The notes: generated by a model from the letters alone, not told the origin. DNA of 64,000 nucleotides from Escherichia coli (GCF_041886205.1 NZ_CP169029.1); one strand, 5' to 3'. Counted from the first letter of the stretch, positions 4,385 to 9,117 are shown. Numbers and translations: made by a program.

Positions 4385-4966
4385 ATGCGTCTGTGTGACC
4401 GAGATATTGAAGCCTGGCTTGATGAAGGCCGTTTGTCGATCAACCCACGTCCGCCAGTGGAGCGTATTAACGGCGCGACGGTGGATGTACGCCTGGGCAA
4501 TAAATTTCGTACCTTCCGTGGTCACACGGCAGCGTTTATCGATCTGAGCGGTCCCAAAGATGAAGTGAGCGCCGCGCTTGACCGCGTGATGAGCGATGAG
4601 ATCGTTCTCGACGAGGGCGAGGCGTTCTATCTTCACCCAGGAGAGCTGGCGCTGGCGGTGACGCTGGAGTCGGTGACGCTGCCAGCCGATCTGGTGGGCT
4701 GGCTGGACGGGCGTTCCTCTTTGGCGCGTCTGGGGCTGATGGTGCACGTCACCGCGCACCGCATCGATCCGGGCTGGTCTGGCTGCATTGTGCTGGAGTT
4801 CTACAACTCCGGTAAGCTGCCGCTGGCGCTGCGTCCGGGCATGTTAATTGGTGCGCTGAGCTTTGAGCCGCTTTCCGGCCCGGCGGCGCGACCTTACAAC
4901 CGCCGTGAAGATGCGAAATATCGCAACCAGCAGGGCGCGGTAGCCAGCCGAATCGATAAAGACTAA
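4385..4966 (+). CDS. dcd: dCTP deaminase
   Basis: 193-aa [26 protein letters not shown], length and sequence typical of Dcd; follows udk. Confidence 0.92.
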
Positions 4967-4987: not shown

Positions 4988-6841
4988 ATGAGACGATTTC
5001 TGACGACGCTGATGATACTCCTGGTCGTGCTGGTGGCCGGATTATCTGCGTTAGTGTTGCTGGTGAATCCGAATGATTTCCGCGACTATATGGTCAAGCA
5101 AGTTGCTGCACGTAGCGGTTATCAATTGCAGCTCGACGGGCCACTGCGTTGGCACGTCTGGCCGCAGCTTAGTATCCTCTCCGGGCGAATGTCTCTCACC
5201 GCCCAGGGCGCGACCCAGCCACTGGTTCGCGCCGACAACATGCGCTTGGACGTGGCGCTTTTACCACTACTGAGTCATCAACTGAGCGTTAAGCAGGTGA
5301 TGCTAAAAGGGGCAGTGATCCAACTGACGCCGCAGACGGAAGCGGTGCGCAGTGAAGACGCTCCGGTTGCACCGCGCGACAATACCTTGCCGGATCTGTC
5401 AGACGATCGCGGATGGTCGTTTGATATATCCAGTCTTAAGGTGGCGGACAGCGTTCTGGTGTTCCAGCATGAAGATGACGAGCAGGTGACAATCCGCAAT
5501 ATCCGCCTGCAAATGGAACAAGATCCCCAACATCGTGGCTCATTTGAGTTCTCCGGGCGGGTTAATCGCGATCAGCGCGATCTCACGATATCCCTTAACG
5601 GTACGGTAGATGCTTCTGATTATCCGCATGATTTAACGGCGGCTATTGAACAAATTAACTGGCAGTTGCAGGGTGCAGATTTACCAAAACAAGGTATTCA
5701 GGGGCAGGGGAGTTTCCAGGCCCAGTGGCAGGAGTCACATAAACGCCTTTCATTTAACCAAATTAGTTTGACCGCCAATGACAGTACGCTGAGCGGGCAA
5801 GCACAGGTTACGCTGACAGAGAAACCGGAATGGCAGCTGAGGCTGCAATTCCCGCAACTGAATCTTGACAACCTCATCCCGCTTAATGAAACCGCGAATG
5901 GTGAAAACGGTGCCGCGCAGCAGGGGCAGAGCCAATCAACGTTGCCGCACCCGGTTATTTCTTCGCGTATTGATGAACCGGCCTATCAGGGACTGCAAGG
6001 CTTTACGGCTGATATTTTGTTGCAGGCCAGTAACGTGCGCTGGCGCGGAATGAATTTTACAGATGTTGCCACGCAAATGACCAACAAGTCGGGTCTGCTG
6101 GAAATTACTCAACTACAGGGCAAGCTTAACGGTGGACAGGTTTCACTGCCGGGCACGCTGGACGCGACATCAATAAATCCGCGGATAAACTTCCAGCCAC
6201 GGCTGGAAAACGTTGAGATTGGTACCATTCTGAAGGCGTTTAACTATCCGATTTCGTTGACCGGAAAAATGTCACTGGCTGGTGATTTCTCCGGTGCTGA
6301 CATAGATGCCGACGCATTCCGCCACAACTGGCAAGGACAGGCACATGTCGAAATGACCGACACGCGCATGGAAGGGATGAACTTCCAGCAGATGATTCAG
6401 CAAGCGGTAGAACGTAATGGTGGTGATGTGAAGGCCGCTGAAAACTTCGATAACGTAACGCGTCTTGACCGCTTTACCACCGATTTGACGTTGAAGGATG
6501 GCGTCGTGACGTTAAACGACATGCAAGGTCAATCGCCTGTGCTGGCGCTTACAGGGGAAGGCATGTTGAATCTGGCAGATCAAACCTGCGACACCCAGTT
6601 TGATATTCGGGTCGTGGGTGGCTGGAACGGGGAAAGCAAACTGATTGATTTCCTCAAAGAAACGCCAGTACCGCTGCGGGTTTATGGCAACTGGCAGCAA
6701 CTCAATTACAGTCTGCAAGTGGATCAGTTACTGCGCAAACATCTACAGGACGAAGCGAAACGTCGCCTGAATGACTGGGCCGAGCGGAATAAAGATTCCC
6801 GCAATGGCAAAGATGTGAAGAAGTTGCTGGAGAAGATGTAG
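4988..6841 (+). CDS. asmA: AsmA outer-membrane assembly protein
   Basis: 617-aa ORF with N-terminal membrane anchor MRRFLTTLMILLVVLVAGLSALVLL; conserved position after dcd. Confidence 0.9.
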   Translation: MRRFLTTLMILLVVLVAGLSALVLLVNPNDFRDYMVKQVAARSGYQLQLDGPLRWHVWPQLSILSGRMSLTAQGATQPLVRADNMRLDVALLPLLSHQLSVKQVMLKGAVIQLTPQTEAVRSEDAPVAPRDNTLPDLSDDRGWSFDISSLKVADSVLVFQHEDDEQVTIRNIRLQMEQDPQHRGSFEFSGRVNRDQRDLTISLNGTVDASDYPHDLTAAIEQINWQLQGADLPKQGIQGQGSFQAQWQESHKRLSFNQISLTANDSTLSGQAQVTLTEKPEWQLRLQFPQLNLDNLIPLNETANGENGAAQQGQSQSTLPHPVISSRIDEPAYQGLQGFTADILLQASNVRWRGMNFTDVATQMTNKSGLLEITQLQGKLNGGQVSLPGTLDATSINPRINFQPRLENVEIGTILKAFNYPISLTGKMSLAGDFSGADIDADAFRHNWQGQAHVEMTDTRMEGMNFQQMIQQAVERNGGDVKAAENFDNVTRLDRFTTDLTLKDGVVTLNDMQGQSPVLALTGEGMLNLADQTCDTQFDIRVVGGWNGESKLIDFLKETPVPLRVYGNWQQLNYSLQVDQLLRKHLQDEAKRRLNDWAERNKDSRNGKDVKKLLEKM

Positions 6842-6860
6842 GTTACCAGGTGACCTGTCC

Positions 6861-6899
6861 TGTAGGCCTGATAAGACGCGTAAAGCGTCGCATCAGGCG
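6861..6899. repeat. REP (repetitive extragenic palindromic) element downstream of asmA
   Basis: tgtaggcctgataagacgcg...cgtcgcatcaggcg palindromic REP consensus. Confidence 0.8.
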
Positions 6900-7292
6900 T
6901 TCGCGGCGGCACCATTATATTCTGAATATGTAAGATCGAAGGCTGTTCCGTTCACTTGATGTTCCTCGCTACTATGGAACGCTCAAGCCGGTGAACGTGC
7001 CAGGGTGGCTCAATCGCCACCACCCTGGCAACCCGGGCTCCCGGCGGTAAATCGCCGCTGGCGCGGTTCCCTCATCTTATTCCTTTCGGCTATCGGGTAC
7101 GGGCGCGAGGTAACATCCCTGTAAAACGCGCCCTCAGCCCACATCCATGTGGGCTGCCCCGGCCTACAGGAAACGATTCGGCGATTTACAGCCGGACCCA
7201 CACCCCCGCTGTAATGTCCATGTACCACAGACAACGCTTCATTGCTGAAGTTATAAGGCGTCACGCAGCATCGGGTAAAATGACCGATACCA

Positions 7293-8876
7293 TCACACCT
7301 CGTACTCCAACTCGCCATCCTTATGCAGCGGAATAATCTGCACCTTCTGCACGCGATGGCTTTCCACCTGCAACGTTTTAAGCAAATAATCCCCCACCTG
7401 AACTTCTTCGCCAGGTTTTGGAATACGCTGTAAATATTCCATCAACAGCCCGGCAATGGTGTGATATTCACGTTTTTCATCCAGCGGCAGCGGCACATAT
7501 TGCACTAGATCTTCCAGCGGCATATGACCATTCGCCGTCCAGGAACCGTCCGCATTCTTCTGAATATCATGGCGGGCGTCGATCTCTTCCACTTCGTTCG
7601 GTAAGTTACCGGCAATGGTTTCAGTGACGTCACTTAATGTCACAATCCCTTCCACCGAGCCAAACTCATCCACCACAAAAGCAAAGTGTGTGCGGGCATT
7701 ACGGAACTGCTCCAGGGCAGGTAACAACGGCAAGGTTTCCGGGAACACCAGCGGCTGGCGAATCAACACCCGCAGGTTGAGCGGTTCGCCGCGCAGTGAC
7801 TGTTGTAGCAGGTCGATAACGTGAACAACACCGAGCAAATCTTCTGCGTCGTCACCGTCGGTAACCACCAGCCGCGTATGCTGATTACGCTCCAGCAACT
7901 GGCGGATCTCGTCTTCCGGCGCGTTGAGATCGATATGCTCAATATCGTGGCGCGACGTCATAATGCTGCTGACGGTACGCTGGTTAAGATTAAGTACCCG
8001 CTCAATCATCCGCCGTTCCTGCGGATTAAAGATCTGCTGGTTACCATGATCCACCAGCATGGACGCGGTTTCGGCGTCCAGTTCCGCATCTTCTTTTTGC
8101 CCGCTAAGCAGGCGCATTACCGCTTCGGTAGTCCGCTGGCGCAGCGTCTGGTTAGCGGAAAGAAAACGTCGCCGGTTAAAGATAGCCAACTGATTGAGCG
8201 CCTCGATCATCACCGAGAAACCAATGGCAGCGTACAGGTAGCCTTTCGGAATGACGAAGCCGAAACCTTCTGCCACCAGGCTAAAGCCAATCATCAACAG
8301 GAAGCTTAAGCAGAGAATAACGATGGTCGGGTGACTGTTAACAAATTGCGTTAACGGCTTGCTGGCCATCAACATCAGGCTGATAGCGATAACCACGGCG
8401 GCCATCATGACCAGTAAATGGTCGACCATCCCGACGGCGGTAATCACCGAGTCGAGTGAGAAGATGGCGTCCAGTACCACAATTTGTGTCACCACCCCCC
8501 AGAACTTCGCACCTTTGCGTTGTGTGGGGTTATTGCTGTCTTTTCCTTCCAGCCGTTCGTTCAGCTCCATCGTGGCTTTGAACAACAGGAAGAAACCACC
8601 AAACAGCATGATTAAGTCGCGGGCGCTAAAGGTAAACGAGCGGAAGCTGAACAGCGGTTGAGTCAGGGTGACCAGCCAGGAGATTGACGCCAGCAGTAAC
8701 AGGCGCATTAACATCGCCAGCAGCAGCCCGGTAACCCGTGCGCGGTCGCGCTGCTTCGGCGGTAGTTTTTCGGCGAGGATGGCAATAAAGACCAGGTTAT
8801 CAATGCCGAGGACCAGTTCGATCACAATCAGCGTGATTAACCCGGCCCAGATAGACGGATCGGCAATCCATTCCAT
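7293..8876 (-). CDS. yegH: Inner membrane protein YegH (TerC-family membrane domain plus CBS/CorC-type domains)
   Basis: ORF 7293-8942; start set at internal ATG giving [30 protein letters not shown] (527 aa); C-terminal CBS pair and transporter-associated domain. Confidence 0.85.
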
Positions 8877-9117
8877 AGTAAGTACAAAACCTATTCGTTG
8901 TATGACAAATGTCACAATTCGATCATGGATAAATCGGGGCAAAAATGCAATGTTGCAGCACTATTTATCTCATATTATTTGAGGGTAATAACCTCACATT
9001 ATCCCTGAATTAAAAGTGGTAATAATAAAACATTATTTAAGAAATATCGCATGTAGAGACACTATATTAAATATTGTCAACCTAAAGAAACTCCTAAAAA
9101 CCATATTGAATGACACT

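Follow-up and report, generated by a model that had tools for sequence, protein, structure and literature searches.

TRIP1 repeats, first described by Rudd in 1999, have five published loci in Escherichia coli, aqpZ-ybjE, putP-ycdN, yohI-yohG, alx-sstT and copA-ybaP, of which the copy between aqpZ and ybjE (lysO) is TRIP1a and the copy between alx and sstT is TRIP1d (Li et al. 2024, PMC10888264). TRIP1a and TRIP1c, the lysO and dusC copies, are also known as RRS, or Replication Risk Sequences, that is, GC-rich repeats near lysO and dusC which lie ~650 kb either side of dif (Pham, Wood, Dunbar, Cox and Goodman 2024, PMC10592627). Where the G-quadruplex strand of an RRS is the lagging-strand template, polymerases are blocked and gaps load RecA and SSB, and the experiments on the family so far concern an effect at the DNA level only (PMC10592627). 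A second described system of interest is the orphan motif TwoAYGGAY (RF01731; Weinberg et al. 2010, PMC2864571), in which a closing stem, P1, surrounds two hairpins with loops of the AYGGAY type. TwoAYGGAY RNAs were earlier predicted to bind CsrA (Gardner and Eldai, PMC4333381). The consensus obtained for CsrA by SELEX, RUACARGGAUGU, has an ACA and a GGA that do not vary, the GGA being located in a hairpin loop (PMC4347634). In the literature searched we found no paper tying TwoAYGGAY to TRIP1 or RRS.

The DNA analysed here, referred to as the window, is a stretch of 64,000 nucleotides from an E. coli genome (GCF_041886205.1, NZ_CP169029.1), in which dcd (4385-4966, plus strand) and asmA (4988-6841, plus strand) converge on yegH (7293-8942, minus strand). 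Our results indicate that the sequence at 6943-7216, between asmA and yegH, is very probably a complete and non-coding member of the TRIP1/RRS family, from a divergent subfamily, and that the family as a whole is probably the GC-rich enterobacterial branch of TwoAYGGAY. An earlier note on this DNA, made from the sequence alone, had drawn attention to an unusually structured, non-coding stretch at 6920-7292, which it held to be distinct from a neighbouring REP element and could not assign to any known repeat family. The structured stretch is real, but the conserved unit is narrower. As defined by nhmmer with a profile of four paralogues, by an alignment of 53 copies (alignment A3) and by composition, the element occupies 6943-7216 on the minus strand (274 bp, 61% GC, non-coding) and lies 102 bp past the stop codon of asmA and 77 bp past that of yegH. 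In the RefSeq record of MG1655 the asmA-yegH spacer is without any annotated feature, no annotated RNA gene lies under the match in the best 30 of the thousands of matching RefSeq E. coli genomes, and a scan of 6843-7292 for sigma-70-like promoters found none inside.

The REP element lies on the asmA side, at 6865-6902 (strand not given), where it was recognised from a partial match to the REP-derived naRNA4 and by direct reading. It belongs to a distinct repeat family and is retained in an empty allele of the locus that is without the element, so that the separation of the structured stretch from the REP was correctly drawn. REP/BIME and ERIC (IRU) sequences are like the TRIP1/RRS family in being dispersed, structured, non-coding enterobacterial repeats of 3' intergenic regions, but have no sequence relation to it. 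A REP is ~35 bp long and is found in hundreds of copies, whereas members of the TRIP1/RRS family are ~270 bp long, are found in 1-12 copies and have a multi-helix fold with fixed loops.

BLASTN was run with the element against 5,426 complete genomes of E. coli, and the median number of places matched per genome was three. The matches away from asmA-yegH are at aqpZ-lysO, alx-sstT and proX-ygaY, the last between proX and an MFS gene. The aqpZ-lysO paralogue matches at 85.7% over 185 bp (E=9e-47) and the alx-sstT paralogue at 78% over 203 bp. These two paralogues are TRIP1a and TRIP1d (PMC10888264), and TRIP1a is an RRS; the stretch thus has a place in a known repeat family, contrary to what had been supposed from the sequence alone, and this is an outcome that the earlier note had itself named as one that would refute its view. 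In an alignment of four paralogues the whole of window 6943-7216 is conserved, all helices align and there are compensatory changes in each hairpin. A scan of one genome per species for a conserved 17-mer, followed by nhmmer, gave the set of 53 distinct full-length copies, which come from Escherichia, Enterobacter, Citrobacter, Kluyvera, Lelliottia, Leclercia, Silvania, Trabulsiella, Raoultella, Pseudocitrobacter and other genera. Taken together, nhmmer and covariance-model searches identified more than 70 copies in ~12 enterobacterial genera, and the family covariance model, R1, alone identified 76.

Orthologues in E. albertii and Escherichia sp. E1V33 share 95% identity with the window element, Enterobacter copies 82% and the proX copy of E. 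coli 77%. By contrast, its overall identity to TRIP1a and TRIP1d, which are 89-94% identical to each other, is only 65-68%. The window element therefore represents a second subfamily, and it clusters with the copies from Enterobacter, Lelliottia and Silvania and with the E. coli proX-ygaY copy. Neither the asmA-yegH copy nor the proX copy is among the five published TRIP1 loci (PMC10888264). The likeness to TRIP1 is nevertheless extensive. Besides clear sequence homology it includes size (274 bp versus 146-273 bp), GC content (61% versus 62-65%), an intergenic position tens of base pairs past a stop codon, the very stable 'double-Y' fold of TRIP1, variation in presence and orientation, and the existence of partial copies with internal deletions. 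What sets the window element apart from TRIP1 is its location outside the five described loci and its low overall identity to TRIP1a and TRIP1d.

Both strands of the element fold far better than shuffled sequences, which agrees with the description of the stretch as unusually structured. The minus strand has a folding energy of -137.4 kcal/mol (z = -5.15), equalled by none of 200 dinucleotide shuffles, and the plus strand one of -122.2 kcal/mol (z = -4.47 versus dinucleotide shuffles), so that the minus strand folds better by 15 kcal/mol. The strand that is apparently folded is the G-rich one, the minus strand of the window, which has the same sense as yegH; all helices and loops given below are on this strand. 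The core of the element, at 7037-7199, scores 176.5 bits with R1 and is TwoAYGGAY-like, consisting of the closing stems P0 and P1, two hairpins with GGA loops, a linker and a small hairpin. The 5' strands of P0 (CCGGC) and P1 (UAAAUCGCCG) are at 7179-7195, and their partners, the 3' strands of P1 (CGGCGAUUUA) and P0 (CGCCGG), are at 7041-7057. The P1 stem (AAAUCGCCG/CGGCGAUUU), which is lengthened by P0, covaries, with double-sided changes in seven of its eight pairs, and in the 53-copy alignment P0 alternates by subfamily between CCGGC/GCCGG and UGGCG/CGCCA. Within the closing stems, hairpin A (7135-7156), CAGCCCAC-AUGGAU-GUGGGCUG, has a loop of the AYGGAY or CA-N-GGA-N-G type in which the GGA is nearly invariant in the 53-copy alignment, and double-sided changes are found in seven of its eight pairs. 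Hairpin B (7101-7133), GGGCGCG...UUAC-AGGGAU-GUUACCU...CGCGCCC, contains the conserved 17-mer (7108-7124), and its GGA is invariant in the 53 copies.

The linker at 7065-7090, GCCGAAAGGAAUAAGAUGAGGGAACC, is mostly unpaired and has two further GGA motifs (conserved AAGGAAUAAG); it corresponds to the near-invariant columns 127-141 of alignment A3. The small hairpin, CCGCG-CCA-GCGG, is at 7055-7066 (helix 9, with double-sided changes in three of four pairs), and its family consensus is CCGC-GAA-GCGG, which includes GCGAAGC. Two more hairpins are found outside the core. Hairpin C (6999-7029), in which A3 pairs 205-214/232-238 covary, corresponds to the first of two inverted repeats quoted in the earlier note, CAGGGTGG (7003-7010) pairing with CCACCCTG (7022-7029). 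Hairpin D (6949-6997; A3 pairs 242-246/284-288), CGUUCAC...GUGAACG, has a variable loop, and its stem swaps by subfamily from GUUCAC/GUGAAC to GCUCC/GGAGC. The second quoted inverted repeat, in which CAGCCCACAT pairs with ATGTGGGCTG, is that of hairpin A at 7135-7156. Both inverted repeats are therefore present, but the spacer of the first is the 11-nt CTCAATCGCCA, and not of 8 nt as had been written.

In the 53-copy alignment RNAalifold predicts 44 pairs, 27 of which are compensated. Across 72 distinct sequences from ~12 genera, pairing is kept in 95.6% of cells compared with 81.1% in shuffles (R1 alignment), 32 of the 39 core base pairs have double-sided changes, and the covariation score is 0.325 compared with 0.104 in shuffles and no more than 0.05 with slid partners; the alignment behind these figures was fitted to covariance model R1, which favours structure, and the margins are large. 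A naive column-pair search for helices on a MAFFT alignment was too disturbed by indels, and the covariance-model alignment was used instead. The stems covary across genera, and the loop sequences stay fixed. On the G-rich strand, the minus strand of the window, G-U or U-G cells outnumber A-C or C-A cells by 53 to 12 in the model-fitted alignment and by 18 to 6 (p = 0.02) in the MAFFT alignment, which uses sequence only. The strand favoured by G-U is also the strand of the Rfam match and the 'G4 strand' of the RRS. Judging from these covariation statistics, the structure appears to be under selection on the G-rich strand. G-T wobble is tolerated in folded single-stranded DNA too, and the strand asymmetry is for that reason no proof of RNA. 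The possibility raised in the earlier note that the stretch could be a stable structured RNA gains support from the covariation, the strand asymmetry and the match to TwoAYGGAY.

That match comes from a search with the Rfam covariance models, a check that the earlier note had proposed, in which TwoAYGGAY was the best family and the only one with a notable score over the element. The match, at 7048-7191 on the minus strand, spans the full model (1-168) with 31.5 bits (E=0.023) and does not reach the gathering score of 43; TwoAYGGAY is the best family for the paralogues too, at 28-33 bits. A divergent copy from Pseudocitrobacter (L045 2177-2338) scores 64.1 bits with R1 and 49.2 bits with RF01731, which is above the gathering score. 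Reciprocally, the enterobacterial model R1 matches a Paraglaciecola locus (L110 3078-3234) with 33.6 bits (E=9e-5) where RF01731 scores 51.2 bits, although the loci with reciprocal hits, including this one, were fetched by means of a 17-mer from the element and part of the score arises by construction. The 17-mer of hairpin B is found in threshold-passing TwoAYGGAY RNAs of Paraglaciecola, and also in Thalassotalea, and the block UUACAGGGAUGUUACCU is identical in members from Alteromonadales. As to the loops, AUGGAU in hairpin A fits AYGGAY, and AGGGAU in hairpin B has a G at the pyrimidine position; loops of the AGGGAY type were already in the original TwoAYGGAY alignment (the Psychromonas rows) and are found in a threshold-passing Paraglaciecola member.

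Like TwoAYGGAY, the window element has a P1 stem closing round two adjacent hairpins of matching order and spacing, whose loops are of the AYGGAY type in A and a variant of it in B, and both are present as several intergenic copies per genome. Unlike TwoAYGGAY, the window element is below the gathering score (31.5 versus 43 bits) and far more GC-rich, has a purine at position 2 of its second loop, AGGGAU, and has the additional 3' hairpins C and D and a small hairpin of the GNA type. Because of the sub-threshold match, the Pseudocitrobacter copy that passes the threshold, the reciprocal match, the shared block and the AGGGAY loops, we conclude that the TRIP1/RRS family is probably the GC-rich enterobacterial branch of TwoAYGGAY. 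Most of the other non-enteric matches in the 17-mer scan were due to chance or were coding, for example in a conserved Lachnospiraceae gene, and only the Alteromonadales matches are true relatives.

The possibility of recognition by CsrA is suggested by the loops. Two CANGGANG motifs (CA-N-GGA-N-G), 27-29 nt apart, are found on the G-rich strand in 48 of the 53 copies and on the other strand in none. In the window copy they are CAUGGAUG and CAGGGAUG, 28 nt apart, and in hairpin B the sequence UACAGGGAUGU agrees with the CsrA SELEX consensus (PMC4347634) at 11 of 12 positions. The element resembles the CsrA/Rsm-binding RNAs (CsrB, CsrC and RsmY/Z) in having hexaloop hairpins of the ACA-N-GGA-N-GU type, with two sites ~28 nt apart, a distance that suits one CsrA dimer, and with extra single-stranded GGA motifs. 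It differs from CsrB, CsrC and RsmY/Z in having 2-4 GGA sites and not 9-22, in being without a BarA/UvrY-type promoter or a terminator, and in its variable orientation. The element would act through its folded G-rich strand, recognised at the two GGA loops. Read-through from yegH should transcribe this strand as a 3'UTR, because the element has the same sense as yegH, lies 77 bp past its stop codon and has no terminator in between, and the folded RNA is predicted to present a two-site clamp for one CsrA dimer. We tentatively suggest that the window copy may be such a read-through 3'UTR of yegH with a predicted clamp for a CsrA dimer. Against an RNA function, neither a promoter nor a terminator is conserved together with the element in the 53-copy alignment and the scan, the element is inverted at asmA-yegH in two Escherichia lineages and at aqpZ-lysO in strain E69, and in only 25 of 40 copies does the G-rich strand run in the same direction as the gene upstream, so that there is no fixed orientation relative to transcription. 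In a table from K-12 CsrA CLIP-seq, which is at gene level only, dusC and ybjE, which adjoin the two RRS copies, have no peak, and this is weakly negative for the RRS copies.

Comparison with the asmA-yegH region of other E. coli, also proposed in the earlier note, revealed full-length, partial, empty and inverted alleles. By BLASTN, 1,424 of the 5,426 complete genomes (26%) have the element at full length. In ~49% of genomes there is locus-specific sequence, with at least 95% identity, covering only part of the element, and in ~25% there are only paralogue-level matches and the element is absent at the locus. The asmA-yegH copy is dispensable, since it is full-length in 26% of genomes, partly deleted in ~49% and absent in ~25%. 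In the remnant found in K-12, 7100-7277 (178 bp) is lost, one ATTGGGTA is kept, and hairpins A and B are removed. Comparison with K-12 places the two end points of the deletion at an 8-bp direct repeat, ATCGGGTA, of which one copy, at 7092-7099, is the left end point and the other, at 7270-7277, is the right (neither assigned to a strand); the spacing of the two repeats, 178 bp, is the length of the deletion. The idea of a 'decayed repeat', put forward in the earlier note, thus describes the K-12 allele well but does not describe the full-length copy of the window. In the one empty allele examined the spacer is 67 bp and holds the REP only. In the inverted allele, from E. coli SCPM-O-B-8794 and Escherichia sp. 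E1V33, REP and element are flipped between two inverted REPs. The proX copy is present in ~10% of genomes, in place of a REP. No target-site duplications were seen when occupied and empty junctions were compared. Phages and plasmids were considered as vehicles and rejected: there was no match in the phage collection, and the plasmid matches were limited to 28 records, most of them megabase-size, chromosome-like sequences filed as plasmids and none of them genuine.

Several other explanations of the element can be weighed against a CsrA-type function. Terminators or mRNA-stabilising hairpins for the convergent asmA and yegH, the former also a guess of the earlier note, would be consistent with the high stability of the hairpins, with the location of the element 102 bp and 77 bp past the two stop codons and with that of the family copies, which are mostly 40-130 bp past a stop codon. 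We consider this highly improbable, as a terminator scan of 6700-7450 on both strands gave no terminator-like sites, including within 6843-7292, and found no T-run 3' of any hairpin on either strand. Furthermore, ~25% of E. coli genomes are without locus-specific element sequence, the empty allele examined consists of the REP in its 67-bp spacer, and the family is dispersed over unrelated loci in both orientations. A small protein gene has next to nothing to recommend it beyond the existence of two open reading frames, one of 102 aa at 7010-7318 on the minus strand and one of 39 aa at 7005-7124 on the plus strand. The 102-aa frame has no Pfam match at E<=1, overlaps the covarying helices and is broken in K-12, where the 178-bp deletion is out of frame. 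The indels among paralogues are not multiples of three, and the substitutions track base-pairing and not codon structure. We therefore reject a coding function, in agreement with the earlier judgement that the stretch is non-coding and that the 102-aa frame is not a credible gene and has no recognisable family. A better case, which we hold as tentatively as that for CsrA, can be made for an inert relic of a non-autonomous, rarely moving, MITE-like repeat, the structure of which was once needed for spread and which has no host role. Presence and absence vary within E. coli for the window copy (full-length in 26%) and the proX copy (~10%), and TRIP1d and TRIP1e are found in 23% and 3% of genomes, respectively (PMC10888264). 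The loci differ by genus and are always between genes, with 1-12 copies per genome, both orientations occur at a single locus, other genera have adjacent inverted pairs and internally interrupted copies, and no protein is encoded. However, neither target-site duplications nor terminal inverted repeats are found at the occupied and empty junctions, where the element replaces or abuts a REP, and the element was not found on phages or genuine plasmids. Also against a relic, paralogues with 20-35% divergence have retained 95.6% of pairs together with invariant loops, which points to selection that is still acting, and in K-12 two members of the family are essential under certain conditions (PMC10592627).

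The element may alternatively function as DNA in the same way as an RRS. When the replisome opens the duplex, the G-rich strand would fold and block lagging-strand synthesis, and the post-replication gap would load SSB and RecA and relieve topological stress, a mechanism reported for the copies at lysO and dusC. The window element is in the same family as both RRS (TRIP1a and TRIP1c), is likewise GC-rich and hard to replicate, and selection for folding is apparently on the strand that corresponds to the 'G4 strand' of the RRS. In vitro the RRS are a barrier to Pol I, II and IV, and gaps are formed wherever the G4 strand is the lagging-strand template (PMC10592627). The instability of the locus, with a 178-bp deletion between 8-bp repeats, an inversion and an empty allele, fits structure-forming DNA, and folding at the DNA level would also explain the deletions and inversions. 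The consensus of the small hairpin in the family has GCGAAGC, which is a very stable DNA mini-hairpin. For the window copy such a function nevertheless appears unlikely. The RRS G4 motif, GGGGGTGCAGGGGGCGGCGG on the sense strand, is present in the TRIP1a and TRIP1d sequences and missing from most of the family, and it is absent in the window element, where the homologous stretch is GGGTTGCCAGGGTGGTGG. Hairpin C occupies the position homologous to the RRS G-quadruplex, and the sequence there is GGGUUGCCAGGGUGGUGG. The G4Hunter maximum is 1.20 in the window element compared with 1.84 in TRIP1a and TRIP1d. In MG1655 asmA-yegH is at 2.139 Mb with asmA on the minus strand, and the window element, unlike the RRS, is not near lysO or dusC; the distance to dusC on the K-12 map is ~90 kb. 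If the genome is collinear with MG1655, the G-rich strand of the window element would, unlike that of the RRS, be the leading-strand template, and in this orientation inverted RRS gave no gaps (PMC10592627). Only two gap sites were found in K-12 (PMC10592627), though K-12 has only the truncated asmA-yegH copy. A simple polymerase obstacle also leaves unexplained both the invariant CA-N-GGA-N-G loops on covarying stems and the AT-rich relatives in Alteromonadales. Finally, ~74% of E. coli genomes either lack the window copy or have it in broken form; in contrast to the RRS, this copy is dispensable in most strains. Because the copies of the family vary in orientation, all three of the CsrA-type, relic and RRS-like explanations stay live; for the window copy we place a CsrA-type RNA module level with an inert relic, and an RRS-like obstacle after both.

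The locus itself is ordinary; the paralogue that it holds is dispensable and comes from a repeat family described before. Compared with the TRIP1 and RRS papers, our results indicate that the family has at least two E. coli loci (asmA-yegH and proX-ygaY) beyond the five of TRIP1, and that it comprises distinct subfamilies across Enterobacteriaceae. Most members, the window copy among them, are without the G-quadruplex that is credited with the RRS phenotype. All members have kept the covarying multi-helix fold with its two fixed GGA loops on one strand, and this fold links the family to the orphan TwoAYGGAY motif, earlier predicted to be a CsrA binder. We speculate, as a doubtful but possible generalization, that the RRS and all their TRIP1 relatives are enterobacterial TwoAYGGAY elements in which the conserved feature is the strand-specific fold with two GGA hairpins, of the CsrA type, and not the G-quadruplex. 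The family would then be a module of RNA, or of single-stranded DNA, that a protein recognises, and the gap phenotype at lysO and dusC would be a lineage-specific add-on or a side effect. This raises the question of whether the effects of the RRS come from the G4, from the conserved fold or from a bound protein, and the natural alleles of asmA-yegH, full-length, inverted, internally deleted and empty, are suited to addressing it. The adjoining REP marks both the inversion and the empty alleles of the asmA-yegH spacer, and in another allele this spacer holds a toxin-antitoxin cassette with relE/parE and HTH genes.

The family element is placed with a polarity towards gene ends. Of the 45 cases counted over all family loci, which are not independent because orthologous loci entered more than once, 33 have the end of the element carrying hairpin D directed towards a stop codon whose gene is transcribed in the direction of the element, and the gap between that end and the stop codon is usually 24-130 bp. 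Orientation relative to replication appears to differ between copies. For the accessory copies at asmA-yegH (window 6943-7216), proX (locus L002) and alx (locus L004) we infer that the G-rich strand is the leading-strand template, whereas for the two near-universal RRS copies, at lysO and dusC, it would be the lagging-strand template; this contrast comprises five loci only and was drawn from K-12 gene orientation via the K-12 map.

At individual loci the element can be inverted with respect to its neighbouring genes. The asmA-yegH spacers of E. coli SCPM-O-B-8794 and of Escherichia sp. E1V33 carry the REP and the element flipped as a unit relative to both genes, matching the window (6800-7340) at 91% identity on the opposite strand (L046:8620-9170, L101:1-1389). 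Because the flipped unit in L046 is bracketed by two REPs that are inverted relative to each other, the sequence suggests that it arose by REP-mediated inversion. E. coli E69 has TRIP1a, the aqpZ-lysO copy, reversed with respect to the genes on either side (L054:3883-4154 compared with L003:2942-3213), a local flip of the entire 270-bp element.

The asmA-yegH spacer has other alleles. In one found in some E. coli, seen in strain ERL06-2497 (L129:443-1187), a cassette of a relE/parE-family toxin and an HTH antitoxin takes the place of the entire spacer, with both REP and element (the site corresponds to window 6842-7292). In the 'empty' allele of E. coli GW-AmxH19 (L128:443-509) the spacer is 67 bp, consisting of the REP and 14 bp, and comparison of this allele with the occupied one revealed no target-site duplication. 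A second unlisted family copy in E. coli, present in about 10% of genomes, lies 41 bp past the proX stop codon (L002:3000-3272). Genomes without it have REP-like sequence at that spot, between TGTGCGG and TGCGCGG (L127:745-935).

The small hairpin of the element (window 7055-7066; columns 161-175 of A3, the 53-copy family alignment) has the family consensus CCGC-GAA-GCGG, which includes GCGAAGC; the variants GCGCAGC and GCGUAGC conform to a G-N-A triloop pattern. The DNA mini-hairpin d(GCGAAGC) is exceptionally stable, and the consensus would therefore hint that the family element folds as DNA.

Klebsiella has more copies than E. coli, where they number one to seven, as 12 places match the element in Klebsiella pneumoniae CP125156.1 (H153), a chromosome filed as a plasmid record. 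The TwoAYGGAY motif in the marine gammaproteobacterium Paraglaciecola chathamensis, as in the enterobacterial family, appears from its sequence context to behave as a piece of a larger dispersed repeat. Threshold-passing copies there lie amid a nest of other direct repeats (L110:2997-5101), which are 56-89 nt long and 74-97% identical.

In genera beyond Escherichia, neighbouring family members are often paired in opposite orientation, a typical with a divergent copy, and together form a very large palindrome (L045:1961-2338, L121:393-751, L085:1592-1960, L020:5964-6377 and L021:1023-1428). In some copies the core is interrupted by about 75 nt of inserted sequence, so that the match spans about 238 nt where the model has 162 (L023:1098-1335, L105:1344-1580 and L014:3285-3523), and these still score about 140 bits.
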